A stretch of DNA of 64,000 nt from an uncultured Acidobacteriaceae bacterium (GCA_963836525.1 CAWIJW010000005.1:25669-89668), one strand, 5' to 3'; positions 5,780 through 30,960 are shown, numbered from the stretch's first letter. Numbers and translations: made by a program. The notes: generated from the sequence alone by a model not told the origin.

Positions 5780-8197
5780 TCACTCCTCCCGCAACAGGAT
5801 CAAAGGATCGACGAGCAGCGCGCGTCGCGCCGGAATCCACGCCGCCATCAGGCCCAGGAACAGCATGGCTACAGTCACGCCGCCCAGCACCAGCGGATCT
5901 TTTGGCGTGGCCTGGTACACAATGAACGACAGCACGCGCGTTCCCACGAGTCCCAGAACCAGGCCGGCAACCGAGCCGATGGCCAGAAGCCGGAAGGCTC
6001 GTCCCAGCGAAGTGCGCAGGATTTCCCGGTTCCCTGCGCCCAGCGCTACGCGAATTCCCAGCTCACGCAGCCGCTTGCTGACCGAATACGACGCCATGCC
6101 GAAGATGCCGGTCACCGCCAGCATCGCGCCCAGCAAGCCGAGCACGCCCAGCGCGATGGTGGCTACACGTGCGGCAAACAACGCGGTATCCATTTCTTCG
6201 GTCCACGACCGGATGGTGATGGGCAGGCCGGAATCGAGCCCGTGCAGCCCGCGCTCCAATCCGCGCGCGATCTCCCCCGGTTCGCGATTGGACCGCGCTA
6301 CCAGCCAGACAGCAGAGGAGTCATGTTGCAGGAGCGGGAAGAACATCGCCGGCTGCTGATCTTCGGTGAGCGTGCGGTATTTGCCGTTTTCCACCACGCC
6401 TACGACTTCCGCACGGTTTCCTCCCCAGAACTTGAAGTGGCCGCCGATGGCTTTGTCGGCCGATCCGAATACCTTCTCCGCAAACTGCCGATTGACGAGC
6501 GCGACGGTAGGCGATTTCTTGTCGTCGTTAAACGTGAAGTCTCTGCCTGCCAGAAGCCTGGTGCCGGACGCCCCAAGATAGCCGGGTGAAATGTTGTAGT
6601 TCATGGCGTCGGCAATATAGTTGGTGGGCCGATAATCGGTCGTGGAGTCGGTATAGACGTAGGAGTCGCCTCCGCCCAGTCCCAACGGAATCTGGCTGAC
6701 CAGGCCGGCGGCTGAGACTCCCGGGATAGAGGAAGCTTGATCGATCATGCTGCGTTGCATTTGCTGGATGCGATCACCCGAGTACCCAGCCATTTTCAGA
6801 TCGGCCGAAACGAGCATTGCATTCTGCGGCTGGAAGCCGAAGCTGCTGTGGAGCGAGCGCACCAAGCCGCGAACGGCGACCAATGAGGAAGTGACCAGCA
6901 CGGCGCAGATCGCAATCTGCGCAACCAGCAGCACGTCGCGAAGGGCGAAGCGCCTGGTTCCCGCTCCACCGCTCGCGCCCGTGCGGATCACGTGCCACGG
7001 ATCGGAGCGCATGACCTGGCCGACCGGCACCATGCCGAAGAGCAGGCCGCTGACCAACGCGAGCAGCAAGGCAACACCAAACGTGCGGAGGTCCGGATTG
7101 ACCGGAACGTTGATCGGGACATCGGGAATCGGCTGCCAGGCGCTCAGCCCATGCAGGATGACCACGCCGCCGGCAAGTCCGATCGTGCCGCCGGCCAGCG
7201 AAACGAGCACCGCCTCCGTGAGCAACTGGCGAAGGATCAACCCACGCCGCGATCCCAAGGCGAGACGCAGCGCCACCTCTTTAGCGCGGTCTGCCGTGCG
7301 CGCTGCAAACAGGCTACCCAGATTCGCGCACGCCGCCAGCAGGATGAGCCCGGCAAGCAGCATCAAGCCGGCCATGAACGCCCGCGCCGGTCCGCCCAGC
7401 ATGTCGCCAACCAGACCCGGACGCGCGAGGCTGAAATTGATGCCGTCATCGTCAGAGGGATAGGCTTTCGCCAGCCAGGCGCCGATTGCGTTCAGATCGG
7501 CCGTTGCTTCTGCCGGCGTCACTCCGGGCTTGAGGCGGCCGACCACCCAGGGCGAGTGATTGCCACGATATTTCATGTCGTTGAAGCCCATGACCGTGGG
7601 CTCTTCGACGAGCGGAATCCAGAGCGCCGGCGCGAAGAACAGCTCTGTGCCCCGGAATGCCGGCGGAGCCACGCCGAGAATGGTGAATGGATGCTTGTTG
7701 ATGTTGACCGTGCGTCCCACGACGCCTGCGTCGCTGTGAAAATGGCTATGCCAGTAGGGGTAGCTCAGCACGACGTAGGGGGCACTGCCCATGCCTTTTT
7801 CATCAGCGGCGTGGAAGAAGCGGCCAAGATAGGGCTGAATGTAGAGCGCATCGAAGTAAGTGCCGCTGACCAAATAGGGCCACGCCGTCGACGGATCGTT
7901 GCCGGCATCGACGCCCACGGGGCCGATGATCTGGCAGGCCACCAGGCTCTCAAAGGTCCGGTTCCGGTCGCGCAGATCGAGAAGATCCAGGTACGACTGC
8001 GAAGGATACTGGTAGCGTTGCACCATATAGAGATTCTGAGCCTGGGGCACGTTCACTGGCCGCAGCACCAGTGCATTCAAAACGCTGAACACTACGGCGT
8101 TGGCGCCGATTCCCAGGGCGAGGGTGGCAATCGCAGTGAGGGTGAATCCGGGCGATTTGCGCAATTGACGGAGTGCGAGCTTCAGGTCGCTGAACAT
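5780..8197 (-). CDS. ADOP-type duplicated ABC permease (2x MacB_PCD/FtsX), copy 1, divergent from the main operon
   Basis: N-terminus DLKLALRQLRKSPGFT, LALGIGAN, LLAACANLGSL, second-half RELGIRVALGA, and C-terminus PARRALLVDP..LREE. An alternative start exists at 8212. Confidence 0.93.
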   Translation of the reverse strand: MFSDLKLALRQLRKSPGFTLTAIATLALGIGANAVVFSVLNALVLRPVNVPQAQNLYMVQRYQYPSQSYLDLLDLRDRNRTFESLVACQIIGPVGVDAGNDPSTAWPYLVSGTYFDALYIQPYLGRFFHAADEKGMGSAPYVVLSYPYWHSHFHSDAGVVGRTVNINKHPFTILGVAPPAFRGTELFFAPALWIPLVEEPTVMGFNDMKYRGNHSPWVVGRLKPGVTPAEATADLNAIGAWLAKAYPSDDDGINFSLARPGLVGDMLGGPARAFMAGLMLLAGLILLAACANLGSLFAARTADRAKEVALRLALGSRRGLILRQLLTEAVLVSLAGGTIGLAGGVVILHGLSAWQPIPDVPINVPVNPDLRTFGVALLLALVSGLLFGMVPVGQVMRSDPWHVIRTGASGGAGTRRFALRDVLLVAQIAICAVLVTSSLVAVRGLVRSLHSSFGFQPQNAMLVSADLKMAGYSGDRIQQMQRSMIDQASSIPGVSAAGLVSQIPLGLGGGDSYVYTDSTTDYRPTNYIADAMNYNISPGYLGASGTRLLAGRDFTFNDDKKSPTVALVNRQFAEKVFGSADKAIGGHFKFWGGNRAEVVGVVENGKYRTLTEDQQPAMFFPLLQHDSSAVWLVARSNREPGEIARGLERGLHGLDSGLPITIRSWTEEMDTALFAARVATIALGVLGLLGAMLAVTGIFGMASYSVSKRLRELGIRVALGAGNREILRTSLGRAFRLLAIGSVAGLVLGLVGTRVLSFIVYQATPKDPLVLGGVTVAMLFLGLMAAWIPARRALLVDPLILLREE

Positions 8198-8280
8198 GCG
8201 GTGCCATCCCATTTGAGCGTTCTGAGTTTCACTACGCGTGCCATACGCACAATGTTCCAGGGACTCGGCAGCGCAACCCA

Positions 8281-8298
8281 CTGTCCGAAATCGAACAG
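8281..8298. promoter_or_regulatory. Imperfect palindrome; candidate UAS for the sigma54 activator
   Basis: CTGTCCGAAATCGAACAG matches its own reverse complement at 14/18 positions and lies about 95-110 bp upstream of the -24 element at 8393. Confidence 0.45.
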
Positions 8299-8390
8299 TG
8301 GTTTGACGGAAGCGGTCACTATTCTAGCCGTTGCCTGCGAGTCCGGCTAGAGCAACCCATTTGTTTTCAACATATACGATCAGAGAGAAT

Positions 8391-8407
8391 TTGGCGCGGC
8401 ACGTGCT
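8391..8407 (+). promoter_or_regulatory. Sigma54 (-24/-12) promoter of the adaptor-ATPase-permease operon
   Basis: TTGGCGCGGCACGTGCT has GG (8393-94), N10, GC (8405-06), close to the consensus TGGCAC-N5-TTGCW. It is intergenic, 14 nt before ATG 8421, and the locus encodes an NtrC-type activator. Confidence 0.65.
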
Positions 8408-8420
8408 ACGTCTTCGAACG

Positions 8421-9689
8421 ATGGATATTGCACGCCCTGATCTATTGCGAAAGAGGAAGCGCCGGATCATGATCTGGTCCGGTGCCGCGGTGGTAGTTGT
8501 TGCGGCACTTGCAGTAGCCGTCCTCCACCTGAAACCAGCCGCACCCGATGTGGATCGCTCCACCATCTGGACGGACACGGTCAAGCGCGGCCCGCTTGTC
8601 CGCCAAGTGCGTGGCTCCACCGGCACCCTGGTTCCGCGCGAAGACTCGATCGAGCTAATCCCCGCGCAGACCGACGCAACAGTCGTTCGCATACGCGTCT
8701 TGCCCGGCGCCCAGGTGACTCCGAATACGATCATCATGGATCTGGCCGATCCGCAACTCCAGCAGGAAGTGCTCAACGCGCAGTTGGCGCTCAAGGCCGC
8801 ACAAGCGGACTACAAGAGTCTCCAGGCCACGCTAGAAAGCACGTTGATGGACAAAAAGACCGCGGCCGCGCAGGTGAATGCCGACTATACGCAGGACCAG
8901 TTGCAGGCGCAGACCGACAAGGCGCTTTACGACCTCGGGGTCATCTCCGGCCTCGCCTATCAGAAGTCAAGGAGCACGGCCGACCAGTTGACCACGCAGC
9001 ACCAGCTGAGCCAGGAGCAGCTCGATGTGAACCAGAAGGCCATCGAGATCCAGCTGGCTTCACAGAAGACCAAAATCGACCAGGCCCAGGCGTTGCTCGA
9101 TCTCTATCAGAGGCAGGCGCAAGCGCTTCAGGTCAGGTCCAGTATTTCGGGCGCGCTGGCGCCGCTGGCGACTCCCGTGCAGGTGGGCGAGCATGTGACA
9201 GCGGGAACATCGGTGGCCGAGGTGATCCAGCGCGACAAACTCAAAGCCGCACTCCAGATCGCCGAGACGCAGGCCCGTGACATTCAAATCGGTCAGCCAG
9301 CCTCAATCGACACGCATAACGGCATTATTCCCGGCCACGTCACCAGAATCGATCCATCGGTCGTGAACGGAACGCGCACGGTTGACGTAGATCTAGATGG
9401 GCCGCTGCCGCCGGGAGCGGTGCCGCAATTAAGCGTGGATGGAACCATCGATCTGGAGCGGATGAGCGATGTGCTTTACGTCGGCCGGCCGGCCCTGGGC
9501 AATGAGAACTCCACGCTGAGTCTGTTCAAGCTCGACCCGGAGGGCAAGACTGCGACGCGTGTGCCGGTCAAGGTGGGCCGCGCGTCGGTGAACAACGTTC
9601 AGATACTGGAAGGACTAAAGGAAGGCGACACGGTAATCCTCTCGGATATGTCGCGCTGGGACAACGTGGACCGCATCCACCTGGAATAG
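8421..9689 (+). CDS. Periplasmic adaptor (membrane fusion protein, HlyD/MacA-like)
   Basis: N-terminal basic patch plus TM (RKRKRRIMIWSGAAVVVV), TVKRGPLVRQVRG, lipoyl/hairpin organisation, and C-terminal GLKEGDTVILSD. Confidence 0.9.
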   Translation: MDIARPDLLRKRKRRIMIWSGAAVVVVAALAVAVLHLKPAAPDVDRSTIWTDTVKRGPLVRQVRGSTGTLVPREDSIELIPAQTDATVVRIRVLPGAQVTPNTIIMDLADPQLQQEVLNAQLALKAAQADYKSLQATLESTLMDKKTAAAQVNADYTQDQLQAQTDKALYDLGVISGLAYQKSRSTADQLTTQHQLSQEQLDVNQKAIEIQLASQKTKIDQAQALLDLYQRQAQALQVRSSISGALAPLATPVQVGEHVTAGTSVAEVIQRDKLKAALQIAETQARDIQIGQPASIDTHNGIIPGHVTRIDPSVVNGTRTVDVDLDGPLPPGAVPQLSVDGTIDLERMSDVLYVGRPALGNENSTLSLFKLDPEGKTATRVPVKVGRASVNNVQILEGLKEGDTVILSDMSRWDNVDRIHLE

Positions 9690-9789: not shown

Positions 9790-9799
9790 GGGGGATCGA

Positions 9800-10522
9800 A
9801 TGGAATCCAACGGTACGTTGATTGAAATCGAGGACCTGACCAAGATCTTCTACACGGACGAAGTGGAGACGCACGCGCTTTCCGGCGTTCACCTGACTAT
9901 CGCGCGCGGTGAGTATGTGGCCATATCCGGCCCCTCGGGTTGCGGCAAGTCCACGCTGCTCTCCATTCTCGGCTTGCTCGACACGCCCACCGCGGGCCGG
10001 TATCTGCTCAACGGCAGTCCGGTCGAGAGCCTGAACTTCGGCGACCGGTCACGCATCCGCAACCAGGAGATCGGCTTCATCTTCCAGAGCTTCAATCTCA
10101 TCGGCGATCTTACAGTCGAGGAGAATGTCGAGCTGCCTCTCACCTATCGCGCAGGCATGCCATCGGCAGAACGCAAGAAGCGTATGAAAGAAGCGCTAGA
10201 GCGCGTCAACATGGCACACCGCATGCGGCACTATCCGGCACAACTGTCCGGAGGCCAGCAGCAGCGCGTCGCCGTGGCCCGCGCCCTGGCCGGTTCGCCG
10301 TCGATTCTGCTTGCCGATGAGCCCACGGGCAACCTGGACTCGAAAAACGGCGAAGCCGTTATGCACTTGCTTGCCGAACTGCATCGGGAAGGCTCGACGA
10401 TCTGCATGGTCACCCATGATCCTCGCTTTGCCAAGCACTCCGAGCGCGAGGTGCATCTGTTCGACGGAAAGGTGGTATCGGAAGATGAGCGCAAGAAGCT
10501 CGAGGCAGAAGCGGAGGCGTAG
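9800..10522 (+). CDS. ABC ATP-binding protein (MacB/LolD-type), ATPase 1
   Basis: Walker A GPSGCGKS, Q-loop FIFQSFNL, signature LSGGQQQRV, Walker B LLADEPTGNLD, H-loop VTHD. Confidence 0.96.
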   Translation: MESNGTLIEIEDLTKIFYTDEVETHALSGVHLTIARGEYVAISGPSGCGKSTLLSILGLLDTPTAGRYLLNGSPVESLNFGDRSRIRNQEIGFIFQSFNLIGDLTVEENVELPLTYRAGMPSAERKKRMKEALERVNMAHRMRHYPAQLSGGQQQRVAVARALAGSPSILLADEPTGNLDSKNGEAVMHLLAELHREGSTICMVTHDPRFAKHSEREVHLFDGKVVSEDERKKLEAEAEA

Positions 10523-10524
10523 CC

Positions 10525-12972
10525 ATGCTTTTCCAGGATTTGCTCCGCGACCTGCGCTACGCGCTGCGCCAGTTGCGCAAATCGCCGGGGTTCACTGTCG
10601 CGGCGGTGATCACGCTCGCTTTCGGCATCGGGGCCAATAGCACAATTCTCAGCTGGATTAACGCCACGCTCTTCGATCCCATACCCGGCGCGGCCCACAC
10701 GGAGAACATGATCACGATCCAGCGCGGCGAGCGAAGCGAGCACGCCTCGCCTCCGCTGTCCTATGACGACTACGTCGACCTGCGCAACGGCACGACGACG
10801 CTCTCGGGCCTACTCGGCTATCACGACGACTTCATGGCCATCACCGGCAATGGCAAGCCGGAGCGTATCTATGGCGCGCTGACCACCGCGAACTATTTCG
10901 AGATGCTGGGGGTAAAACCCATTCTGGGCCGATCGCTGAGTGACGCTGCGGCCAATGAACGTACCGGGGCCGCGGAAGTCGTGCTTGGCTACGACCTCTG
11001 GCAGCATCGCTTCGGGGGCGACCCGTCGGTTGCTGGCAAGACCATCGAGATTAATCGTCATACCTTCACGATCGTGGGCGTCGCCCCGCGCGGCTTCGTC
11101 GGTTGCAAGAGCGGGCTGCGGACGGACGTCTGGCTGCCGCTCGGCATGGTCACGCAAGTATGGAACTGGGAACCGATCAATAACCGCGGCGTCTCGTGGT
11201 TGAACGTGTTGGGAGTGCTGCGGCACGGCGTGAGCCGGCAGCAGGCGGACCAAGAGTTGAACCTGCTGATGCAGCGCATTGTGGACCGCTACCCGGAATC
11301 GCACCGGGACGACAACCGGCTCTCCACGGACCCGCTGTGGCGGTCGCCGTTTGGCGCCAACGTCTATCTGGCGGGCACTCTCACCATCCTGCTCGCCTTG
11401 GCAGCGGTGCTGCTTCTGCTTGCCTGCGCCAACGTGGCCAACCTGCTACTGGTGCGGGTCGTTACGCGCCGCCGCGAAGTTGCAATACGGCTATCGATGG
11501 GCGCTAGCCGTTGGCAACTTTTCCGCCATCTCATGGTCGAGAATCTCCTACTCGCGGCGGGCGGATGCACTCTCGCGCTGGCAGTTACTTCCTGGACCGC
11601 ACGGATGCTGGCTTCCTTCATTCCGGTCATTACGCTACCGCTGAATATCAATGGCCGGCTGGACGGCCGAGTGGTCGTGACGACGATGGCTGTCTCCGTG
11701 TTGACCGCCCTGCTGGCCGGCGTGCCGCCCACGCTGCGCGCATCCGCCTTGTCTCCAGTCACCGCGCTGAAGGACGAAACGCTCAGCACTTCTGGCGGGC
11801 TCCGCAAGTCACGGCTTACCTCAAGCCTGGTGGTGCTTCAAGTCGCGCTCTCACTGGTACTTCTTACCTGCGCTGCCCTCTTTTTCCGCAGCCTCCAGAA
11901 GGCGCAGAGCCTCGATCCCGGCTTCGATCCCGATCATGTTTACCTCGCCTCATTCGATCTGAGCCCGCTGAACTACTCCGATGCGCAGGCGCTGGAGTTC
12001 CAACGCCAGGTCCTGGCGCGCGTAAGCGCTCTGCCGGGCGTGCAAGCTGCAACGCTGGCCGACTTCTCGCCCCTGAACTTCAGCATTCACTCCTCGGGTG
12101 TCATGCCAGAAGGCTACGTCCCGCGCCCGCATGAGTCTGTGGAAGCCGACAGGGGAACGGTGTCGACCCAGTATCTCGAGACGATGCGCACGCCGCTCGT
12201 AGCGGGCCGCGAGTTCAGCTCTTCGGATACGGACGGTTCGCAGCCGGTCCTGATGGTCAACCAGGCCCTGGTCGATCGCTTCTGGCCGGGCCAGGACGCG
12301 GTCGGCAAGCACATCCAGGTTGGCCGCACAAACTACACAGTCGTGGGCGTCACGGGCAACGCAAAATACCGGCGACTGGTCTACGATCCGGCTCCGCTGG
12401 TTCTTTTCCCGCTGACGCAGCGATACGAAAACGAGGAATTGATTCTTCACGTGCGCGTGGCCGGCGATCCGATGGCCTATGCGTCGGCAGTCGAGCGGAC
12501 CATCCACTCCCTCAATCCGGATTTGCCGTTGTACGGTGTCACCACACTCAAGTCGAGCATGCAGATGGGCAGCGTCTTTCAGCGCATCGGTGTGGTCTTC
12601 GCGGGCTCGTTCGGCGTGCTGGCCATGATCCTGGCCGCCGTGGGCCTGTATGGCGTGATCTCCTACACCACCCGGCAGCGCACGCACGAGATCGGTATCC
12701 GCATGGCGCTCGGCGCCAGTCGCAGTGACGTTTCCGGGCAGGTCCTACGACAGGGACTTCGCCTCACGCTGGCGGGACTCGGCGCCGGTTTCGTAGCCTC
12801 GCTGATCTTTGCTCGTTTTCTGCGCGGAGTGCTTTTCGGAATCGGGTCGAACGATGGGCTGACCTTCGCGCTGGTTCCAACCGTGCTGCTGCTGGTTGCG
12901 CTGGCTGCCTGTTATCTGCCCGCGCGGCGCGCCGCATCGGTTGAACCTGCGGAGGCTCTACGAATCGAGTAA
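10525..12972 (+). CDS. ADOP-type duplicated ABC permease, copy 2
   Basis: DLRYALRQLRKSPGFT, LLLACANVANL, RTHEIGIRMALGA, PARRAASVEP..LRIE; 815 aa. Confidence 0.95.
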   Translation: MLFQDLLRDLRYALRQLRKSPGFTVAAVITLAFGIGANSTILSWINATLFDPIPGAAHTENMITIQRGERSEHASPPLSYDDYVDLRNGTTTLSGLLGYHDDFMAITGNGKPERIYGALTTANYFEMLGVKPILGRSLSDAAANERTGAAEVVLGYDLWQHRFGGDPSVAGKTIEINRHTFTIVGVAPRGFVGCKSGLRTDVWLPLGMVTQVWNWEPINNRGVSWLNVLGVLRHGVSRQQADQELNLLMQRIVDRYPESHRDDNRLSTDPLWRSPFGANVYLAGTLTILLALAAVLLLLACANVANLLLVRVVTRRREVAIRLSMGASRWQLFRHLMVENLLLAAGGCTLALAVTSWTARMLASFIPVITLPLNINGRLDGRVVVTTMAVSVLTALLAGVPPTLRASALSPVTALKDETLSTSGGLRKSRLTSSLVVLQVALSLVLLTCAALFFRSLQKAQSLDPGFDPDHVYLASFDLSPLNYSDAQALEFQRQVLARVSALPGVQAATLADFSPLNFSIHSSGVMPEGYVPRPHESVEADRGTVSTQYLETMRTPLVAGREFSSSDTDGSQPVLMVNQALVDRFWPGQDAVGKHIQVGRTNYTVVGVTGNAKYRRLVYDPAPLVLFPLTQRYENEELILHVRVAGDPMAYASAVERTIHSLNPDLPLYGVTTLKSSMQMGSVFQRIGVVFAGSFGVLAMILAAVGLYGVISYTTRQRTHEIGIRMALGASRSDVSGQVLRQGLRLTLAGLGAGFVASLIFARFLRGVLFGIGSNDGLTFALVPTVLLLVALAACYLPARRAASVEPAEALRIE

Positions 12973-13002
12973 GAGGAGTCCCGCACGGCAAGGAGACATG
13001 GA

Positions 13003-18033: not shown

Positions 18034-20595
18034 ATGAACAATCTGTGGCACGACCTTCGATACGCGCTGCGCCAGTTGCGCAAATCGCCGGGCTTCACGC
18101 TGACTGTTGATGCTCACACTTGCACTGGGCATCGGCGCCAACACGGCCATCTTTACACTGATTCACGGCATTCTGCTGCGCTCGTTGCCGGTCGCCGATT
18201 CCGCACAACTTTACCGCATCGGCGACACCGACGATTGCTGCGTCGAAGGCGGCTTTCCCGGCGACGCATCGACCACCGGCGACTTCTCGATCTTCTCCTT
18301 CGATCTGTATCAGTACCTCAAGAATTCCGCGCCGGAGTTCGAACAACTGGCGGCGGCTCAGGCTGGGCAGTGGCCATGGAGCGTGCGCCGCGGCGATGCT
18401 CTACCCAAACCGCTGAACGGCGAATTCGTCTCGGGAAATTACTTTTCCACGCTGGGCATCGGCGCGTATGCGGGTCGCGTGTTCAGTGACAACGACGACA
18501 TGGCGACCGCGTCGCCGGCGGTTGTTCTGAGTTATCAGGCGTGGCAGGGCGAATACGCCTCCGATCCATCGATCGTGCGCTCGACAATCTATATCCAGGC
18601 GCGGCCCTTTACGGTGATCGGCATTGCGCCGCCGGGCTTCTTCGGCGACCGCGTCAGACCCAACCCCCCCGACTTCTGGATTCCGATCCAGACCGAGCCG
18701 TACATCCGCGGCAACAACTCTATCCTGCATCATCCCGACTCACACTGGCTCTATCCCGTCGGCAGAGTGCGACCCGGGACGAACGTCGCCGCGTTGCAGG
18801 CCAAGCTCTCCGGCGCTGTGCGCCAGTGGCTCTATTCGCGTCCGTCGATGACCTCGAGATGGCGGAGCGGCAATCATTCCCAAGATGCACGTCGTGCTTT
18901 CACCTGCCGGTGGCGGCATCCAGAACCTGCAGCAGCAGACGGGCAAGGGCCTCAAGTTGCTCATGATCCTCTCGCCTGGTCGTGCTGCTCATCGCCTGCG
19001 CAAACATCGCCAACCTGATGCTGGCGCGCGCCACGACGCACCGCTCTGAGATCGCCGTGCGCGTGGCCCTCGGCGCTGGACGCCGCCGCGTCATCCGGCA
19101 GGTTCTTACCGAAAGCGTGCTGTTGAGCTTATCGGCGGTTTTACAGGCCTGGCGGTTGCCTATGCCGGCTCTCATACCATTCTCGCTCTCGCATTCCCCG
19201 ACGCGCGAAATCTGCCGATCGAAGCCAGCCCATCGTTGCCGGTTCTCAGCTTTGCGTTTGTTGTCTCGCTGGTCACGGGAATTCTTGTTCGGCACCGGCC
19301 CGGCGTGGCTGTCGTCGCATGCGCAGCCAGCGGAGGCTCTGCGCGGCATCAACCGCTCCACGCGTGACCGCTCTTCTCTGCCGCAGAAATCGCTGGTCGT
19401 CTTCCAGGCCGCGTTGTCAGTCGTTCTGCTGGCCGCGGCAATCCTGATGACCAAGTCGCTTGCTCATCTCGAAGACCAGGACTTTGGCGTCGCTACGGCC
19501 AATCGCTATGTGTTGCACTTCGACCCGGCCGGCGCCGGCTACACAACGGACCGGCTGCCCGAACTCTACCGCCAGATCGAAGACCGGTTCTCCGCGCTGC
19601 CCGGCGTGACCAGCATGAGCATGGCCATGTACAGCCCGCTCGAAGGCGACAACTGGGGCGAGTGCGTCATCCAGCAAGGTCATCCCGCTCCGCGCCCCGG
19701 CGATCACTGCGGCTCTACGTGGGATCGCGTCAGCACCCGCTTTCTTGATTCCATCGGCGTGCCCATTGTGCGTGGACGCAACTTTACCGAGCAGGACACG
19801 GCCACATCGCCGCCGGTCGCTATGGTCAATGAGACCTTCGTGAAACGATTCTTCCCCAACCAGGACCCCATCGGCCAGCACTTCGGCATCGATTTGCCGC
19901 AATACTCGGGAAGCTTTGAGATCGTCGGCGTCTTCCGCGACTTTAAGATGAACGTCCCGACGCATCCGGTTCGCCCTGTCTTTCTGCGTCCGCTTTCGCA
20001 ACCATTTGCGGGTTACAAGGAGCCGGAGATGATCTCCACCGAGAGCCAATCCATGATGATGAACGCACTGATCCTCGCGTTCGACGGTCCGCAGCAAAAT
20101 GTGGACGCGTTGGTTCGTCATACGTTGGCCGGCATCGATCGCAGCCTAACGGTGATGGATCTTCGCTCGTTTGGCGCACAGGTGGCCGGCAACTTCATTC
20201 AGGATCGCCTGATTGCACGGCTCAGCAGCCTCTTCGGCATGCTGGCGCTCATTCTTGCCTCGGTAGGACTTTATGGCGTTATGTCTTACTTCGTTGCCCG
20301 GCGCACCAGCGAGATCGGCATCCGCATGGCTCTGGGCGCAAGCCGAGCCAGCGTGGTGAACATGGTGATGCGCGGCGCGCTCTGGCAAATCCTCATCGGC
20401 CTTGTGCTGGGGATTCCCGCATCGCTCTATGCCGGCTACTTGATGAAGGTCATGCTCTACGGCGTGGACTGTTATGACCCGATGGCGCTGACTGGCGCGC
20501 CGCTGATGCTTGTCCTTTGCGCCGCTGCGGCCGGCTTCATCCCCGCCCGCCGCGCGGCTTCCATCGAACCCATGCAGGCGCTGCGCACCGAATAA
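18034..20595 (+). pseudogene. ADOP-type duplicated ABC permease, copy 5, interrupted by five single-base indels (pseudogene or sequencing errors)
   Basis: Start MNNLWHDLRYALRQLRKSPGFT and end PARRAASIEPMQALRTE are both intact. Permease-like reading switches frame at ~18107 (+1), ~18857 (+1), ~18975 (+1), ~19129 (-1) and ~19285 (+1). Confidence 0.88.
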
Positions 20596-23075: not shown

Positions 23076-25526
23076 ATGAATCGACTATGGTACGACCTTC
23101 GCTACGCGCTGCGCCAACTGCGCAAGTCGCCCGGCTTTGCGCTGATCGTGGTGCTGATGCTGGCTCTCGGCATTGGCGCCAATACCGCTGTCTTCAGCGT
23201 GATGAATGCAATCCTGATGCAATTGCTGCCCGTGAACCGTCCCGAGGGCCTTTCCTATGTGCGTATGGCCAACGGCCAGGGCCAGCCGCCGGGCGCGGGC
23301 AATACCGGAGACTCAAATACCTCCTTTTCCGAGCCGGTCTTCGAGGCGTTGCGTCAGCACGGCGACGTCTTTGAAGAACTTATTGGCTATGTACCACTCA
23401 GCTTCACAGGCAGCGTAGCAGTGCGCCACGGTGAGCTTCCAGAAGAAGCCGAGGGTGAAGAGGTCAGCGGCAACTTCTTTTCCGGGCTGGGCGTACCGAT
23501 CGAGCGCGGCCGCGGCTTTGCGCTGGCAGACGAGAAGAACCATGCGCCGCTGGTTGTGCTGAGCTACGATTTCTGGACGCGAAGCTATGCCCGCGATCCC
23601 ACAGTGCTGGGGCACACGCTCTACGTCAAGGGCGTGCCCATGACAATTATCGGTATTGCGGCCCGCGAGTTTAAGGGCATAGAACCAGCCACCTCAACCG
23701 ATTTCTGGATTCCGTTGCAAAGCCGGCCCGAACTGAATGCTTGGGGTGCGCCCGCCCAGTTTAATTCTCTCTACGGCACGCCCAAGTGGTGGGCCCTGCG
23801 CATGATGGCACGATTGCGGCCGGGCGTGACGCCGATGCAAGCGCAACAGGCGCTTAGCGGGGCCCTGGGCGAGGCGGTGAACCGAACGGTCGGTTCGGTG
23901 GATCCGAAGCAATGGAAGCCGCTCCTGGATTTCGCACCGGCCCGCGGTGTTGGCGGGTACAACGAGGAATACCGCACGTCTGTGCTGATTCTTATGGGAC
24001 TTGTCGGATTGGTGTTGCTGATAGCCTGCACCAATGTGGCCATGATGGTGCAGGCGCGTAACACGGTCCGCAGGCGCGAATTCAGTGTGCGTCTGGCTAT
24101 CGGCGCGGGCCGCGTCGCAATCTTTCGCCACTTGTTGTTGGAAAGCCTGCTATTGGTGGGCGCTGGGGCTTCGGTAGGCTGGTTGTTCGCGGTCTCAGCC
24201 ACACGCATGCTGGCGGCTTGGTCGGGCATTGAAACCGGTCTCAGCCCGGATCGAACGGTTTTGGTTTTTACGCTGCTGCTCTCTGCGCTGGCCGCCCTGG
24301 TTTTCGGCCTCGTTCCCCTGCGGAGCGTGATGAATGCCCCTGTCGCGGACGTCTTGCGGTCCGCATCCTTAAACGCCACTACGGCGCAAAGCCGTGCACT
24401 CGGTGGTCGCATCGTGCTTGCTGCGCAGATGGTGATGTGTCTGGTGTTGCTTATGGCCGCCAGCCTGCTGCTGCGCACGCTGCGCAACTACGCCACGCAG
24501 GATCTGGGCATGCAGGCCGACGGGCTCCTGGTCTTCGGCATCACGCCGCTGGGACAGACCGATACGCACGCTTTCTACCGCGCCCTGCTTGACCGCCTTC
24601 GCCAGATGCCCGGCGTCGAGTCTGTCTCGATGGCACATGATCGTCCCGGCTCAGGATGGTCCGCCAACGGCGGCACCTTCATGCTCGATGGCGTCAGGGA
24701 GCGAGGCAAGTTGCGTTCGAACGATGTGGGATCAGGATTCTTCACCACCATGGGCATCCCGCTTCTTGCGGGCCGCGATATTGCTGATTCCGACGGGGCG
24801 GGCACGCCAAAGGTTGCGGTGGTGAACGAAACGTTTGTGAAGCGGTATCTTGCCAATACCAATCCGCTGGGACATGTGCTTCTCGGCTGCAGCATTGTCG
24901 GCGTGGCACGCGACAGCAAATATACGTCGGTGGATGAGGGGCCCACGCCCATCGCCTATTTTGCGCGCATGCAATCCAATCCGGTCGGAATCATGCATAT
25001 CGAAATGCGCACCCGCGGCGACGCCCTGGCGATGTTGCCCGCGGTGCGCAAAATGATGGCCGCTGCTTATCCCGACATTCCCCTCGAAAAACCGATGACG
25101 CAGCGGGCGCAGTTCGAAGAATCCTATGAATCTCAACGTATGTTCGCTGCCATGGGCGGATTCTTCGGTGTGCTGGCGGCCCTGCTCGTCGCCACCGGTT
25201 TATACGGCACGTATTCGTTCCGCGTAAGCCGCCGCACCACCGAGATTGGCGTGCGCATGGCGCTGGGCGCAAGCCGCAGTCAGGTGTTGGCCATGGTCTT
25301 TTGCGAAAGTCTGTGGGTGCTGATCGCGGGACTTGCCGCCGGCATACCGCTCACGCTTCTCGCTGTTCGTTCGCTCAAGTCGATGCTCTACATGATGTCG
25401 CCGCTCGATCCGGTGAGCTTAGTGCTGGCGATTGCGGCGATGATCGTTGTGTCCGGCTGTGCAGTTCTGCTGCCGGCGCGCCGGGCAGCTTCCATCGAAC
25501 CTATGCAGGCATTGAGAACCGAATAA
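23076..25526 (+). CDS. ADOP-type duplicated ABC permease, copy 7
   Basis: DLRYALRQLRKSPGF, LLIACTNVA, RTTEIGVRMALGA, PARRAASIEPMQALRTE; 816 aa. Confidence 0.95.
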   Translation: MNRLWYDLRYALRQLRKSPGFALIVVLMLALGIGANTAVFSVMNAILMQLLPVNRPEGLSYVRMANGQGQPPGAGNTGDSNTSFSEPVFEALRQHGDVFEELIGYVPLSFTGSVAVRHGELPEEAEGEEVSGNFFSGLGVPIERGRGFALADEKNHAPLVVLSYDFWTRSYARDPTVLGHTLYVKGVPMTIIGIAAREFKGIEPATSTDFWIPLQSRPELNAWGAPAQFNSLYGTPKWWALRMMARLRPGVTPMQAQQALSGALGEAVNRTVGSVDPKQWKPLLDFAPARGVGGYNEEYRTSVLILMGLVGLVLLIACTNVAMMVQARNTVRRREFSVRLAIGAGRVAIFRHLLLESLLLVGAGASVGWLFAVSATRMLAAWSGIETGLSPDRTVLVFTLLLSALAALVFGLVPLRSVMNAPVADVLRSASLNATTAQSRALGGRIVLAAQMVMCLVLLMAASLLLRTLRNYATQDLGMQADGLLVFGITPLGQTDTHAFYRALLDRLRQMPGVESVSMAHDRPGSGWSANGGTFMLDGVRERGKLRSNDVGSGFFTTMGIPLLAGRDIADSDGAGTPKVAVVNETFVKRYLANTNPLGHVLLGCSIVGVARDSKYTSVDEGPTPIAYFARMQSNPVGIMHIEMRTRGDALAMLPAVRKMMAAAYPDIPLEKPMTQRAQFEESYESQRMFAAMGGFFGVLAALLVATGLYGTYSFRVSRRTTEIGVRMALGASRSQVLAMVFCESLWVLIAGLAAGIPLTLLAVRSLKSMLYMMSPLDPVSLVLAIAAMIVVSGCAVLLPARRAASIEPMQALRTE

Positions 25527-25571
25527 GTTGAACGGATGCATAACCTCTGAGATTGGAGTCACTCGAACATC

Positions 25572-26276
25572 ATGATCGAACTGAAAAACGTCGAACGAAG
25601 TTACAAGAACGGCTTCACGGAGACCTGGGTGCTGCGCCGGATCGGGCTCAGCATCCGCGAAGGTGAGTTTGTCACCGTCATGGGACCGTCGGGAGCGGGG
25701 AAGTCGTCGCTCCTGAACGTGCTGGCGCTCCTCGATGACGGATGGAAGGGCGAGTACTGGTTCGCCGAAACCGCCGTCCATACGCTCAACCGCAAGCAGC
25801 GCGCCGACCTGGCCCGCCAACGCATCGGAATGGTCTTTCAAAGCTATCACCTCCTCGACGATCTTACGGTCGCCGAGAATATTGACCTGCCGCTTTCTTA
25901 CAAGAATCTGCCCGCAAGGGAACGGCAAGGCATGGTCGCCGACATTCTGGACCGATTCCAGATTGTGGCCAAGAAGGACCTGTTTCCCTCGCAGCTCTCC
26001 GGCGGGCAGCAGCAATTGGTGGGCATTGCGCGCGCCGTGGTGCACGCGCCATCACTGCTGCTGGCCGACGAGCCCACCGGCAACCTGCACTCCACGCAGG
26101 GCCGCGAGATCATGGACCTCTTCTGCGAACTCAACCGTCAAGGCACGACCATCGTGCAGGTGACGCACTCTGAAGAGAACGCGCGCTACAGCCGGCGCAT
26201 TGTGGAGTTGCGCGACGGGTGGATCACGCGCGATGAAACCCTTGCAGCAAAGCCGATGGAGGTTGGCTCCAAGTGA
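25572..26276 (+). CDS. ABC ATP-binding protein (MacB/LolD-type), ATPase 2
   Basis: Walker A GPSGAGKS, MVFQSYHL, LSGGQQQLV, LLADEPTGNLH, VTHS. Confidence 0.95.
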   Translation: MIELKNVERSYKNGFTETWVLRRIGLSIREGEFVTVMGPSGAGKSSLLNVLALLDDGWKGEYWFAETAVHTLNRKQRADLARQRIGMVFQSYHLLDDLTVAENIDLPLSYKNLPARERQGMVADILDRFQIVAKKDLFPSQLSGGQQQLVGIARAVVHAPSLLLADEPTGNLHSTQGREIMDLFCELNRQGTTIVQVTHSEENARYSRRIVELRDGWITRDETLAAKPMEVGSK

Positions 26277-28273
26277 ACCGTTCCGATATCCGTCTTCATC
26301 CGTCAAGTCCGGCACGTCGGATCCAGGCCGTTGCCGCCATTCTGCTTCTGCAAGCGAACCTGGCGCTGGCCGTCGAACCATCCGGACCTGCCGCGCCTTC
26401 GATTCCGTTAGCTCCATCGGCCATGCAAAATGCGCCGGTCGCGCCGGCGCCTGTGCAGGCACATCAGGACAACATTCCCTTCGAGCAACTGCAGCACGCG
26501 TCGCGCAATCCATTCGACGCCTATCGCGGAAAGGCTGTTCCTCCACCCAGCCTGGCAAATTCAGTGCGCCTCGATTCTTTGATTCGCGACGGCAAGCTGT
26601 ATCTAAGGCTGCAGGATGCCATCGATTTGGCGCTTGAGAACAACCTTGACCTGGTGATTGCGCGTTACAACCTGCCCATTGCGCAGATGGATGTATTGCG
26701 CACGGCGGCCGGCGGATCGGTGCGCGGCGTGAATACGGGCGTGGTGTCGGGCACTCCCGGAGGCGCAGGCGGCCTCTTTGCGGGCGGCGCGGGAGCGGGT
26801 GCTGGCGGCACCTCAGGCGGTGCGGGCGGAGCGGGCGCAGGTGCGTCGGGCCTTGTGCAATCCACACTGGGCACGGGCACTGCGGTTTCCACATACGATC
26901 CGTACATCAGCGCGAGGACTTACGTGGATCACACCACCCAGCTTTTGCCCAACCGCATCCTCTACGGCGTTCCGGTGATTCACCAGAACACGTTCCTGGG
27001 CAATTTCTCCTACTCGCAGGCGTTCCCCACCGGAGGCGGCATCCAGGTCGCTTGGAATAACAATCGCCAAACCACCAACAGTCCCAACAATACGCTCAAT
27101 CCCCAGCTCAACTCCTATTTTGAGTTCTACGCGGATCAGCAGTTGCTGGCCGGTTTTGGCCTGGGACCAAACCTGCGGTTCCTGCGCATTGCCAAAACCA
27201 ACCAGATAGTCTCCGATATCGCCTTCCGTGCCCAGCTCATTGCCACCGTGACCCAGATTTGCGACCTGTACTGGGATCTGGTGAACGCCTATGATAACGA
27301 GCAAGTGGGCGAGCGCTCGGTGGCCTTTGCCACTGAGACTCTGAACACCGCCCGCAAGCAGCTCGAGCTCCAGGCAATTCCGGAGATGGACGTACTGAAA
27401 GCGGAGGCGGATTTGGCCACCCGCCAGCAGGACTTGACCGTAGCCCGCACGAATCTTGAGCTGCAAGAGCTGTACATGAAGAACGCCATTACCCGCTCGC
27501 TCGATGACCCTGTGTTGCAGGACATGCCGGTTGTTCCTGTCGACCACATCAGCGCCGAAGTCGAGCCGAACATGGAGCCGGTGCAGGACATGATTGCCTA
27601 TGCGCTCAAGAATCGCACCGAGCTTGAGGAGTCGAGCCTCGTTCTTGAGAACAGCGAACTCAGCCGCAAGACCGCCCGCAACGCTCTGCTGCCCGCGCTT
27701 ACGGTTTACGGCTTCTATGCCGGCACAGGGTACGCTGGCACGCCCAACCCCTTGAACAGCTCCGGCGCAAACGTGCCTGCGGACTTCGGCGGCGCGGTAG
27801 ACAATGCGTTCAATTATTCTTCGCCTGAATATCAAGTGGGCCTTCAATTGACCATTCCGCTGCGCAACCGAATCGCCAAGGCTGACCAGTACCGGACCGA
27901 GCTCGAATACCGGCAGTCGCAGGTCTATCTTGAGGAGTTGAAGAAGCGCATCCGCATCGAGGTTCGGAATGCGCGCTTTGCGCTGGAGCAGGGCGCCAGC
28001 CGCGTAGATGCGGCTCGCCAAGCCCGCGACCTTGCCCAGAAGACGCTCGATATTATGCAACAGGAGCAAAAGCTTGGGGCAGGGTCAAACCAGCAGACCC
28101 TTTCCGCCGAGCACGACTTGGCACTGGCCGAGTCTGCTTTGGTAGCCGCCGAAACCGACTATGAAAAGGCGCGCATCGAAGTGCGGCGCGCTACCGGCTC
28201 GGTCCTTGAGAACTATGGCATCTCGATCGCCGATGCAAAGAGCGGCGTAGTGGAGGCAGACCATTCCCGTTAA
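26273..28273 (+). CDS. TolC-family outer membrane factor
   Basis: Signal-like N-terminus, LRLQDAIDLALENNLDL, beta-strand segments, two coiled-coil repeats (LYWDLV..A, AESALVAAETDY). Overlaps ATPase 2 by GTGA. Confidence 0.88.
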   Translation: MNRSDIRLHPSSPARRIQAVAAILLLQANLALAVEPSGPAAPSIPLAPSAMQNAPVAPAPVQAHQDNIPFEQLQHASRNPFDAYRGKAVPPPSLANSVRLDSLIRDGKLYLRLQDAIDLALENNLDLVIARYNLPIAQMDVLRTAAGGSVRGVNTGVVSGTPGGAGGLFAGGAGAGAGGTSGGAGGAGAGASGLVQSTLGTGTAVSTYDPYISARTYVDHTTQLLPNRILYGVPVIHQNTFLGNFSYSQAFPTGGGIQVAWNNNRQTTNSPNNTLNPQLNSYFEFYADQQLLAGFGLGPNLRFLRIAKTNQIVSDIAFRAQLIATVTQICDLYWDLVNAYDNEQVGERSVAFATETLNTARKQLELQAIPEMDVLKAEADLATRQQDLTVARTNLELQELYMKNAITRSLDDPVLQDMPVVPVDHISAEVEPNMEPVQDMIAYALKNRTELEESSLVLENSELSRKTARNALLPALTVYGFYAGTGYAGTPNPLNSSGANVPADFGGAVDNAFNYSSPEYQVGLQLTIPLRNRIAKADQYRTELEYRQSQVYLEELKKRIRIEVRNARFALEQGASRVDAARQARDLAQKTLDIMQQEQKLGAGSNQQTLSAEHDLALAESALVAAETDYEKARIEVRRATGSVLENYGISIADAKSGVVEADHSR

Positions 28274-29630
28274 GCAAGAAAGAATTCGCGTTCTGGTTGC
28301 CGACGATCAGCCCCACATTCTGGAAGCCGTGGAGCTGCTGCTGTCTCCGCAGGGCATCGACGTCGATTGCGTGCGATCGCCGCACTTGCTGATGGAAGCG
28401 CTCGGCCAGCGCGACTACGATGTGCTGCTCATCGACCTGAATTACACCCGTGATACCACCTCCGGCCAGGAGGGTCTGGATCTGCTGGCGCGCGTCCAGG
28501 AGTACGACTCACGCTTGCCGGTGATCGTCATGACCGCCTGGGGCAATATCGGGCTGGCTGTCGAATCCATCAAGCGCGGCGCTCGCGACTTTGTCCAGAA
28601 GCCGTGGGAGAACGAGCGCCTCCTCTCACTCATTCGCGTTCATGCGGAGCTGCGCCAGGCACTGCGCCGCGCACGCCAGCTTGAGCTCGAAAACCGCCTG
28701 CTGCTTGCCGAAGGCATGCCCGAGTTCATCGCTCAGGCGCCCGCGATGCAGCCGGTGCTCGAGCTCATTGCGCAGGTCGGCCCCTCCGATGCCAACGTGC
28801 TCGTCACAGGCGAGCATGGCACCGGCAAGGAGATCGTCGCCAGACTGCTCCACGCCGCTTCGCCTCGCGCACGCATGCCGCTGGTGACGGTGAATGCCGG
28901 CGGACTGCCGGAGGGAACGTTTGAGAGCGAAATCTTCGGACATGTGAAGGGCGCCTTTACTGACGCGCGCACCGACCGCATTGGCCGTTTCGAGCTGGCC
29001 AACGGCGGAACGCTCTTTCTTGACGAAATCGCTAACGTCCCATTGCGCCAGCAGGCCAAGCTGTTGCGCGTGCTTGAGGCAGGCGAACTGGAGCGCGTGG
29101 GCTCTTCGCAAACCCGGCATGTGGACGTGCGGCTTTTGTGCGCCACCAACGCACAGTTAGGCGAAGAGGTCAAAGCCGGCAACTTCCGCGAAGATCTGCT
29201 CTTCCGCATCAACACCGTCGAGATTCACCTACCTGCGTTACGTGACAGGCGCGAAGATATTCCGCTGCTTGCTCAGCACTTCCTGCATCGCTGTTGCAGC
29301 CGCTATCGCAAGCGAATCAGCGGTTTTTCGCCATCGGCTATCCAGCACTTGATGCGTTATGCCTGGCCGGGCAACGTGCGCGAGTTGGAGCACGCCGTGG
29401 AGCGCGCTGTTCTGTTGTGCCATGGCGACGAGGTAGGTCCGCCCGACCTCGCCATCACGACAGCGCGACAGGCGCCGCAGTCCTTCGAAAGCATGAGCGT
29501 CGATGAGGTCGAAGCTCTTCTCATCCGCAAGGTTCTTCGCCGCTGCAACGACAACATCACTCAGGCGGCTGAGGCGCTCGGTCTGAGCCGCGCAGCGCTT
29601 TACCGGCGCATTGAAAAATATGGCCTATGA
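28263..29630 (+). CDS. Sigma54-dependent response regulator (NtrC/AtoC family); start codon uncertain
   Basis: Receiver RVLVADDQ...LLIDLN...TAWG...KPW; AAA+ GEHGTGKE, GAFTDA, GGTLFLDEI, WPGNVREL; Fis-type HTH NITQAAEALGLSRAALYRR. The receiver domain extends upstream of the ORF-track GTG at 28329. Confidence 0.92.
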   Translation: MPVKQERIRVLVADDQPHILEAVELLLSPQGIDVDCVRSPHLLMEALGQRDYDVLLIDLNYTRDTTSGQEGLDLLARVQEYDSRLPVIVMTAWGNIGLAVESIKRGARDFVQKPWENERLLSLIRVHAELRQALRRARQLELENRLLLAEGMPEFIAQAPAMQPVLELIAQVGPSDANVLVTGEHGTGKEIVARLLHAASPRARMPLVTVNAGGLPEGTFESEIFGHVKGAFTDARTDRIGRFELANGGTLFLDEIANVPLRQQAKLLRVLEAGELERVGSSQTRHVDVRLLCATNAQLGEEVKAGNFREDLLFRINTVEIHLPALRDRREDIPLLAQHFLHRCCSRYRKRISGFSPSAIQHLMRYAWPGNVRELEHAVERAVLLCHGDEVGPPDLAITTARQAPQSFESMSVDEVEALLIRKVLRRCNDNITQAAEALGLSRAALYRRIEKYGL

Positions 29631-30960
29631 GAGCGGCGTGCGCGGGCACAAGCGATCGGCAATCCGCCGGGCGTGGTGGCATTCCCTGCTGCTCACGCTT
29701 CCCGGGCTGATTCTCGCGTCCGTCTTTGCGATCCAGAGCGGAATAAGTCTCTTCTCTGCGGTTCTCCTCGCCGGCGGCTTGCTGATCTACTTTGCGATTG
29801 TGGCCGCTTCTCTGTTGGACGGGATTGTTCGCCCACTGCAAACGCTCTCGAACGTGGTGGCCTCGCTGCGCGAGGGCGACACATCATTTCGCGCGCGAGG
29901 AGCTGGCGTGACTGACGCGGTCGGTGAGCTTGCAGCGGAGGTCAACGCCCTAGCCGACTTGCTGCAGAAGCAGAGAGTACGCTCGCTTGAATCCACGGTT
30001 CTGTTGGCTCGCATGTTTGAGGTCATGCATACGCCACTATTCGCGTTCGATCGCGAGAACTTGCTGCAAACTGTCAACCCGGCGGGCCTGAGACTGCTGG
30101 CCTTGCCATACTCCCGATGCATCGGCCATAGCGCGCGTGACCTCAGGTTGCTGAACCTTCTCGAAGCACCGGATCATACAATCCATGAATTCGGTTCAGG
30201 GTCTACGCGTTGGCTGCTGCGCAAGGCCGCTTTTCGTCAGGATGGCGTGCCCCACACGCTGCTCCTGCTAGCCGATGTCAGCCTGCCGCTCCGGGAAGAG
30301 GAGCAGATCGCATGGAAGCGCCTGATCCGGGTTCTTGGGCACGAATTGTCCAATTCGCTGGCGCCCATCAAGTCCATTGCCGGCAGCCTGTTGGCCCGCG
30401 TGGGCAGCCTGCCCGATGATGCACAGCACGATTTTCGGCGCGGTTTGAGTGTTGTCGAGAGCCGCGCCGACGCCCTGCACCGCTTTGTGCAATCGTACCG
30501 GCAACTTGCGCAGTTGCCTCCGCCGCAGTTCAAAGCAGTTCATCTCGCGCCGTTGCTGGAGCGCGTCGTGCTTTTGGAACAGCGCATTCACGTGGAACTC
30601 GTTCCGGGGCCCCAGGCCAGCCTGAATGCGGATTCGGATCAATTGGAACAGATGCTGATCAATCTGCTGGCCAACGCCGCTGACGCCTCCCTGGCGAACG
30701 GGGCAAAGCCTGTGCGCGTGACGTGGGAAACGAGCCCCTCCCGCGTGGAGATCATCATTGAAGACCGTGGCCTGGGGATCGCCAATCCAGACAACCTGTT
30801 TGTTCCGTTCTATACCACCAAGACCACGGGAAGCGGTATCGGCCTTGCGTTAGCTCAACAGATTGCCCGCAGTCATGGTGGCGAGATCTCGCTGCAAAAT
30901 CGCGACGATGGCGAAGGGGCCCGCGCCACGGTCAGCCTGCCCCTGAAACTGACGGCCTGA
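29620..30960 (+). CDS. Sensor histidine kinase (2 TM, HAMP, PAS-like, HisKA, HATPase)
   Basis: Two adjacent hydrophobic segments, then IVRPLQTLSNVV (HAMP), H-box VLGHELSNSL, N-box INLLANA, IEDRGLGI and GSGIGLAL. Overlaps the end of the response regulator gene. Confidence 0.93.
   Translation: MAYESGVRGHKRSAIRRAWWHSLLLTLPGLILASVFAIQSGISLFSAVLLAGGLLIYFAIVAASLLDGIVRPLQTLSNVVASLREGDTSFRARGAGVTDAVGELAAEVNALADLLQKQRVRSLESTVLLARMFEVMHTPLFAFDRENLLQTVNPAGLRLLALPYSRCIGHSARDLRLLNLLEAPDHTIHEFGSGSTRWLLRKAAFRQDGVPHTLLLLADVSLPLREEEQIAWKRLIRVLGHELSNSLAPIKSIAGSLLARVGSLPDDAQHDFRRGLSVVESRADALHRFVQSYRQLAQLPPPQFKAVHLAPLLERVVLLEQRIHVELVPGPQASLNADSDQLEQMLINLLANAADASLANGAKPVRVTWETSPSRVEIIIEDRGLGIANPDNLFVPFYTTKTTGSGIGLALAQQIARSHGGEISLQNRDDGEGARATVSLPLKLTA

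Follow-up and report, generated by a model that had tools for sequence, protein, structure and literature searches.

Two questions are raised by a locus from an uncultured Acidobacteriaceae bacterium: which ATPases power the permeases of the ADOP family, and can several such permeases be served by one export apparatus? We analyzed a 64,000-nucleotide stretch of DNA from this organism (GCA_963836525.1, CAWIJW010000005.1:25669-89668), which we call the window; its source genome comprises 4.58 Mb in 19 contigs. The locus occupies positions 5780-30960 of the window and contains a divergent ADOP gene, a periplasmic adaptor, an ATPase (ATPase 1), six tandem ADOP cassettes, a second ATPase (ATPase 2), a TolC-like duct, a sigma-54 response regulator, and a histidine kinase. 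An earlier note, made from the DNA alone, had listed this gene content and its coordinates, and gene calls, Pfam, and NCBIfam bear it out. The note also proposed that seven permeases share one chassis of ATPases, adaptor, and TolC with its own regulator. We think it probable, if well short of assured, that the locus encodes a modular MacB-like export system (a type VII ATP-binding cassette, or ABC, system) in which the ATPases, and probably the adaptor and duct too, serve interchangeable single-chain permeases under sigma-54 two-component control. The locus in the window is a typical, well-resolved example of this architecture and not a unique case.

The argument begins with the relatives. A search of a genome collection with the adaptor identified 413 of them, and we used the best 80 (78–90% identical) for locus comparison. 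The nearest are metagenome-assembled genomes of Terracidiphilus or Acidobacteriaceae from peat, bog, and fen. The genes around the cassettes, or frame, are conserved in these relatives: besides the adaptor, identity is 89–95% for ATPase 1, 85–93% for ATPase 2, and 82–92% for the regulator. The complete interval between the two ATPases was recovered for 63 relatives, which with the window gives 64 arrays. In the 63 relatives, the length of this interval is in every case a multiple of about 2.5 kb, and ADOP cassettes alone fill it. Arrays of one, two, three, four, five, six, and seven cassettes were found in 9, 12, 15, 12, 7, 5, and 3 relatives, respectively, and the window adds one more six-cassette array.

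Across 213 intact cassettes, all-against-all identities were sharply bimodal (25–40% between types and 60–95% within types), and they define about 27 discrete types. In these terms, the array of the window is C-M-D-[A, broken]-E-H. None of the types occurs in every array, and even the most frequent, type A, is limited to 40 of the 63 arrays. In the nine arrays with a single cassette, that cassette belongs to one of five types (B, C, H, T, and W), which are about 30% identical to one another, and a type is repeated within an array in just one case out of 64. Array content partly tracks the phylogeny of the frame, with a partial colinearity of G-C-D-L-A-J-B-F/I, and it can diverge strongly between near-identical frames (for example, L085 versus L084). 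Overall, a conserved frame with one to seven variable cassettes gives strong comparative support to the idea of a shared chassis with its own regulator. The claim of seven working permeases did not survive: six are intact, and one (P4) is broken in the assembly.

To assign proteins to the ADOP family, we used the curated cutoff of TIGR03434 (622.3 bits). The six intact permeases score 746.8–869 bits, and each has two stretches of PF12704 (MacB_PCD) and two stretches of PF02687 (FtsX) in one chain. The divergent gene, P0 (type O; 5780-8197, minus strand), scores 746.8 bits and encodes 805 amino acids with the N-terminus MFSDLKLALRQL. The cassettes of the array are all on the plus strand: P1 (type C; 10525-12972; 855 bits), P2 (type M; 13003-15492; 830.1 bits), P3 (type D; 15516-17999; 847.3 bits), P4 (type A; 18034-20595), P5 (type E; 20615-23044; 869 bits), and P6 (type H; 23076-25526; 764.4 bits). 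The permeases do start almost directly at the motif DLRYALRQL, as had been noticed: just 5–9 residues precede it. Type M is rare, being found in three arrays including the window's. Type O occupies the divergent slot in about 14 of the 80 relatives, and P0 is 65% identical to an orphan ADOP on another contig of the genome (C10). Type O can also lie within the array, as in L011/L083, or follow the kinase, as in L007 and L026, and in L006 and L116, one or two ADOP cassettes lie between the adaptor and ATPase 1. Because cassettes and type O turn up at differing positions, cassettes seem to move among several slots of the locus.

Reading through P4 requires five changes of reading frame (0>1>2>0>2>0), each due to a single-base indel (at 18110, 18856, 18974, 19127, and 19281/2). 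Because of these frameshifts, its fragments score low on TIGR03434 (523.8 and 212.4 bits). We dismissed homopolymer sequencing error as the cause, as all five indels are outside homopolymers. Exactly these five indels are absent from contigs of four independent peat or soil metagenomes (97–98% alike), and it is on these contigs that the count of six intact permeases and one broken one is based. All of the genes neighboring P4 are intact, and type A is intact over 1-854 in many relatives, with 70–82% identity to P4. The break reflects either strain-specific decay or an assembly or consensus error; as the comparison consists of contigs of related strains, these two look the same.

Broken cassettes also occur in 4–7 other arrays of the 64. 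This is what one might see if a single cassette in each array assembled into a real pump and the rest were redundant or decaying passengers, kept by linkage, with the array itself a by-product of unequal crossing-over. Repeats at the cassette boundaries, described below, would favor such unequal recombination. We consider this account very improbable. The types are discrete and ancient, duplication of the same type within an array is almost never seen, and the single-cassette arrays rely on five different types rather than one. Type A, the broken one in the window, is also the type that is most often kept elsewhere. Lastly, every type that we analyzed is under purifying selection in all of its regions. 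We estimated the ratio of nonsynonymous to synonymous substitution rates (dN/dS) within eight types and obtained 0.13–0.24 for the periplasmic domains and 0.12–0.19 for the transmembrane (TM) and cytoplasmic parts; these values are rough because synonymous sites are near saturation (pS, the proportion of synonymous sites that differ, is 0.6–0.7).

The low ratios within types indicate that the periplasmic loops are maintained, and neither drifting nor detectably diversifying. The earlier note had suggested comparing loops with TM segments by identity and dN/dS, and the outcome was mixed. Between types, the loops are indeed the least alike: identity among the paralogs is 72% in the N-terminal cytoplasmic helix, 52% in TM1, 42% in TM6-8, 35% in TM2-4, and 26–27% in the periplasmic domains, so the statement that the loops look very different holds (26–27% versus 35–52% for the TM blocks). 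Within types, ongoing diversifying selection on the loops is unsupported. The differences between types are old. The N-terminal cytoplasmic helix is the best-conserved part of the paralogs; in the C-terminal tail, conservation extends to the DNA in all six cassettes.

Permeases within the locus are 28–37% identical, which is no closer than they are to the genome's five ADOPs outside the locus. This rules out a recent tandem duplication, and the array paralogs are ancient. In the window, cassettes recur every 2.46–2.58 kb, and an 87-nucleotide 5' block and a 54-nucleotide 3' block recur six times. The 5' block comprises the Shine-Dalgarno sequence, the start, and the DLRYALRQLRKSPGF codons, and both blocks are 63–89% identical in DNA across cassettes. 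This periodicity with recurring end blocks is not due to chance. When we compared L094 with L099, which differ by one cassette, the junctions of the indel lay inside stretches of 100–190 nucleotides that align to both boundaries, and the junctions of a two-cassette swap (L096 versus L090) likewise lay in conserved boundary stretches of 100–190 nucleotides. These positions fit turnover of cassettes by homologous recombination at cassette ends. We also observed that the depth of peat metagenome contigs rises at least 100-fold at three sites: 18087-18173 (the N-terminal motif), 18957-19043 (LIACANIANL), and 20262-20348 (QRT.EIGIR.ALGA). Because contig depth jumps there, these three ADOP motifs are probably at least 90% identical in DNA over much of the peat community.

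What would the permeases look like, and what is their nearest known relative? An AlphaFold2 model of P1 (predicted local distance difference test score, pLDDT, 83; predicted template modeling score, pTM, 0.74) has eight TM helices and two beta-rich periplasmic domains. Its best match in the PDB (by Foldseek) is YbbP (9ge6_A), which aligns over the full length (E = 2e-19, TM-score 0.45). The next matches are MacB, LolCDE, BceAB, and HrtB. The MacB structures 5gko_A (E = 5e-15), 5nik_J, and 5lil_A each align to one half of the model. The structures of E. coli YbbAP (PDB 9GE6-9GE8), a type VII ABC transporter whose permease is a single chain, contain two YbbA for each YbbP, and the permease has 10 TM helices (PMC12646458). 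Both YbbP and the ADOP model are pseudosymmetric single chains with two periplasmic domains, and in both cases the ATPase subunits are separate proteins. By analogy, the YbbAP precedent supports two nucleotide-binding domains (NBDs) per single-chain permease. The two also differ: YbbP has a 4+2+4 arrangement of TM helices, whereas the ADOP model has eight (4+4) and lacks the linking pair, and sequence identity is 14–15%. YbbAP has one ATPase species, one permease gene, a periplasmic hydrolase (TesA), and neither adaptor nor TolC; we found no TesA-like hydrolase gene in the locus.

The same comparison can be made with MacAB-TolC (PDB 5NIK, 5LIL, and 5GKO), a tripartite efflux pump of the type VII ABC kind that works by mechanotransmission and shares with the locus the MacB-type permease fold, Porter/Sabre-like periplasmic domains, four TM helices per module, the sequence type of the NBDs (MacB/LolD), and an adaptor of the HlyD/MacA family and a TolC-family duct encoded alongside. 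However, the NBDs of the locus are separate proteins of two kinds, whereas the NBD of MacB is fused to the permease, and the ADOP is a single-chain double module, whereas MacB is a homodimer. The frame also differs from MacAB-TolC in having from zero to at least seven non-identical permease genes per adaptor and duct and in its sigma-54 two-component control. The darobactin exporter DarBCD (NF038007, NF038008, and NF038010) likewise consists of an adaptor, a stand-alone ATPase, and an FtsX permease of double length, and it provides the best NCBIfam matches for both ATPases and weak matches for the adaptor and the permeases. The scores are all far below the equivalog cutoffs (241 versus 375 for DarD, 52 versus 450 for DarC, and 31–38 versus 700 for DarB), and neither darA nor darE (the precursor peptide and radical-SAM genes) is present in the locus. 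We considered assigning the locus to DarBCD, BceAB, or YbbAP, and it belongs to none of them.

Orphan status, meaning that no ABC ATPase gene is adjacent, was part of the original description of the ADOP family; it is a descriptive feature and not a defining one. At this locus the description does not apply, since two ATPase genes flank the array. ATPase 1 (9800-10522, plus strand) and ATPase 2 (25572-26276, plus strand) are stand-alone MacB-type NBDs (MacB/LolD-type for ATPase 1) that match PF00005. They are separate proteins of 234–240 amino acids and are 43% identical to each other. For ATPase 1, the best NCBIfam matches are DarD, the MacB NBD, and LolD, all under the cutoff. ATPase 1 has canonical motifs, and the aspartate of its D-loop (DEPTGNLD) is kept in 106 of 106 and in 19 of 19 sequences. 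In ATPase 2, histidine replaces this aspartate (DEPTGNLH); it is histidine in 63 of 63 orthologs from the genus and histidine or glutamine in 7 of 7 distant ones. Both ATPases are retained where the number of cassettes is zero or one. The conserved asymmetry of the D-loops, along with the unlike halves of the permeases, suggests that ATPase 1 and ATPase 2 form a heterodimer.

The rest of the genome has permeases without an evident motor. In total it encodes 11 intact ADOPs, six in the locus and five outside it, and no MacB-type ATPase is near any of those five. Two of the five have an N-terminal extension, the only ADOPs in the genome to do so, and a PadR gene lies directly upstream of each. 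All of the genome's PadR genes are on contigs other than the window's, in agreement with the earlier observation that none is near the locus.

Similar frames are widespread. A full-length homolog of the adaptor was found in 133 of 301 sampled Acidobacteriota genomes, representing 94 of 185 genera. Among 20 distant loci, most have the adaptor, ATPase 1, ADOP cassettes, optionally ATPase 2 and TolC, and then the regulator and kinase; a few have the adaptor-ATPase pair only or a rearranged order. Across the phylum, the number of cassettes ranges from zero to at least seven. (For L108, L109, and L121, the source is an Acidobacteriaceae genome that is a single contig and apparently complete.) Three frames lack a permease altogether (L122, L127, and L118); in their genomes, the dispersed ADOPs number 44, 53, and at least 59. 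In L122, ATPase 1 and ATPase 2 are side by side. Among the genomes with permease-less frames, we ran a census of MacB-type ATPases for G316 only, which has 44 ADOPs: it has six such ATPases in total, and none of the six adjoins an ADOP. The strongest case for ATPases acting in trans is made by such genomes, which combine a motor that has no permease of its own with a multitude of permeases that have no motor.

These observations lead to two further readings. The first is that the ATPases are common to all ADOPs, and that some or none of the permeases work with the adaptor and TolC. The dozens of dispersed ADOPs per genome would be expected on this account; its other attractions are that YbbP, the best structural match, partners with a periplasmic enzyme and not with TolC, and that several distant families have no TolC in the locus yet keep the adaptor, ATPase, and ADOPs. 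On the other hand, the adaptor is the most constant neighbor of the array in all of the 80 + 20 loci, the TolC-less ones included, and the arrays contain no candidate genes for periplasmic partners, as the intervals hold cassettes alone. We regard this as unlikely, though it is a serious alternative. The second and bolder reading is that the two ATPases, along with the adaptor, might be the missing motor of the ADOP family: an obligatory asymmetric heterodimer, with a canonical D-loop on one side and a histidine D-loop on the other, that would power all of the cell's ADOPs in trans, the dispersed dozens included, with the permeases feeding information to the kinase. This would make a joint system for the detection and removal of many envelope-active compounds, whose repertoire is reshuffled between species by cassette recombination. 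We offer this as a speculation that is unlikely to hold in full.

The reading that we prefer, a modular exporter, involves the adaptor and duct as well. The adaptor (8421-9689, plus strand) is a MacA-like periplasmic protein of the HlyD/RND_mfp kind, with matches to TIGR01730, HlyD_3, and HlyD_D23, and it is present as a single copy in the genome. Its start is probably ATG 8421 (MDIARPD...), and ATG 8469 has a better Shine-Dalgarno sequence, AGAGGAAG. The TolC-like outer-membrane factor (26273-28273, plus strand; 666 amino acids) contains PF02321 (OEP) twice, with 111.8 bits. This protein is unusually long, and its N-terminal third (26273-26900) includes a leader rich in proline and alanine and a run rich in glycine and alanine, GGAGGLFAGGAGAGAGGTSGGAGGAGAGASG. 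Two forms of it are found among the relatives, about 46–50% or 70–86% identical.

The genes are spaced as one would expect for a single long operon with one divergent gene beside it. Intergenic gaps are 2–45 nucleotides from ATPase 1 through ATPase 2, and 110 nucleotides separate the adaptor from ATPase 1. There are also two gene overlaps. The stop of ATPase 2 and the start of the TolC-like gene share four nucleotides, and the probable start of the regulator, ATT 28263, overlaps the TolC stop by 11 nucleotides. We found no terminator-like or sigma-70-like sites in the intergenic gaps of the locus.

Upstream of the adaptor, we identified a candidate sigma-54 promoter, TGGCGCGGCACGTGCT (8392-8407, plus strand; -24 GG and -12 GC). 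In 79 loci, conservation of its TGGC and TGC boxes is 90% or higher. The number of matches to the sigma-54 pattern in the window equals the chance expectation, so the promoter rests on conservation across species and not on the pattern itself. Farther upstream is a palindrome, ACTGTCCGAAATCGAACAGT (8281-8298), which is conserved as acTGTcCGaaatCGaACA in an alignment of the 79 upstream regions and is a candidate binding site for the sigma-54 activator.

The regulator is an NtrC-type sigma-54 response regulator (Response_reg, Sigma54_activat, AAA_lid_14, and HTH_8) that runs on the plus strand from 28263 (ATT, the probable start) or 28329 to 29630. Strand beta-1 of its receiver domain (IRVLVADD) is complete only from ATT 28263, which has a GGAGG six nucleotides upstream. 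In the region 28251-28329, no ATG, GTG, or TTG start would include IRVLVADD. An isoleucine codon (ATC or ATT) is conserved at this position in 18 of 21 relatives, which points to a non-canonical AUU or AUC start for the regulator. We considered and dismissed a truncated receiver, because the domain is complete from the conserved codon.

The histidine kinase (29611-30960, plus strand; HATPase_c) has two TM segments that are joined by about five residues (QSGIS, in ...SLLLTLPGLILASVFAIQSGISLFSAVLLAGGLLIYFAIVAASLL..., read from the translation), and it is without a periplasmic sensor domain. This recalls the BceS-type kinases, which sense through their own transporter. A third alternative is that the ADOPs chiefly detect periplasmic ligands, a different one for each permease, in the flux-sensing style of BceAB-BceS, and report to the kinase, which drives the sigma-54 regulator, with export being secondary. 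BceAB is among the fold matches of the P1 model, and the two-component pair stays in the frame even where TolC and ATPase 2 are missing. BceAB-BceRS (PDB 7TCG and 8G3A), a module that senses and detoxifies antimicrobial peptides, also has a single-chain permease of the FtsX family, a separate ATPase, and an adjoining kinase without an extracellular sensor domain. However, the Bce permease has 10 TM helices and one large extracellular domain, whereas the ADOPs of the locus have eight and two periplasmic domains. Bce systems have OmpR-type regulators rather than an NtrC/sigma-54 type, are found in monoderm hosts, and have one permease per system and no adaptor or TolC, which would be pointless in a pure sensor. 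We judge this sensor-first account to be quite improbable.

How would a modular exporter work? We propose that the system is encoded by the divergent gene together with a single operon of about 22.5 kb that depends on sigma-54. Each ADOP is a single-chain pseudo-dimer of two MacB/FtsX modules, with 4+4 TM helices and two periplasmic domains and without an ATPase of its own. Two NBDs would bind the cytoplasmic face of whichever ADOP is present; most likely, this pair is the heterodimer of ATPase 1 and ATPase 2, which would fit the permease's two dissimilar halves. The effect of ATP binding and hydrolysis would pass mechanically to the periplasmic domains, which differ by type and would determine what is handled, and the substrate would be expelled through the common MacA-like adaptor and TolC-like duct. 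The NtrC-type regulator and the sensor-less kinase would turn the operon on, possibly by sensing transporter activity. Cassettes would be lost, gained, and reordered through recombination in the conserved 5' and 3' blocks, giving each species its own repertoire of permeases. As for the substrates, our guess, by analogy with the MacB and Bce precedents and from the PadR-linked ADOPs, is envelope-active molecules from peat and soil, for example peptides, phenolics, or amphiphiles.

Several points weigh against this proposal. First, the adjacency of genes is no proof that every cassette docks to the adaptor, and other type VII systems (LolCDE and YbbAP) function without an adaptor or TolC. Second, both ATPase 2 and TolC are absent from the locus in the distant families L112, L115, L116, and L126, and in some distant families, ATPase 1 is the only ATPase in the locus. 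Because these components are missing there, the heterodimer and a dedicated duct are not general requirements. Third, two of the family assignments are marginal or low: the adaptor's score for TIGR01730 (RND_mfp; 94.9 bits) equals the cutoff, and the TolC-like protein scores 78.6 bits for TIGR01844, below the cutoff of 225. Fourth, the -12 box of the candidate promoter lies about 14 nucleotides before the conserved ATG 8421, which leaves almost no leader; the adaptor's mRNA would be nearly leaderless unless the start is ATG 8469. RNA sequencing runs were sought for the locus, and none that contains it was found. Fifth, the conservation of cassette ends could stem from constraint on the protein alone, and the near-saturation of synonymous sites noted above limits what can be drawn from the dN/dS values.

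Outside the locus, the window has a tRNA-Ser(TGA) at 4952-5041, between an S46 peptidase gene and P0, and Pfam matches to M48 and a zinc ribbon in an unrelated group of genes downstream (31759-35780).

In the searchable literature, we found only two passing mentions of ADOPs or TIGR03434, and no functional study. ADOP genes beside ATPases have been seen earlier, in genomic island 43 (42 kb) of Psychroflexus torquis, which has a cluster of about 10 ADOP paralogs with further transporter proteins, ATP-binding ones among them, and is abundantly translated (Feng et al. 2014, PMC3914696). That island belongs to another phylum and is mobile, with transposases, and the paper does not ask whether a chassis is shared, what cassette types there are, or how the genes are regulated (PMC3914696).

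The closest precedent for the logic of the system, as opposed to its parts, lies among importers. Group II energy-coupling factor (ECF) transporters and the MsiK-type multitask ATPases use one shared energizing module with exchangeable specificity subunits that are partly encoded elsewhere. As in the loci described here, a single conserved motor goes with a variable number of specificity components. Unlike them, the ECF and MsiK systems have unrelated folds, are importers, and have no adaptor or duct. If our preferred reading is correct, then the logic of one motor with many specificity subunits, known for ECF importers, would extend to type VII ABC exporters of the cell envelope.

Few paralogous families in Acidobacteriota are larger than the ADOPs: the genomes sampled here contain from 44 to at least 59 of them. 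ADOPs are found in other phyla of soil and water as well. They have been called orphans because no ATPase partner was evident, and the conserved chassis offers a concrete and testable answer to what powers them. It also suggests that dominant bacteria of soil and peat may tune their tolerance to envelope-active compounds, or the export of such compounds, through the turnover of permease cassettes.

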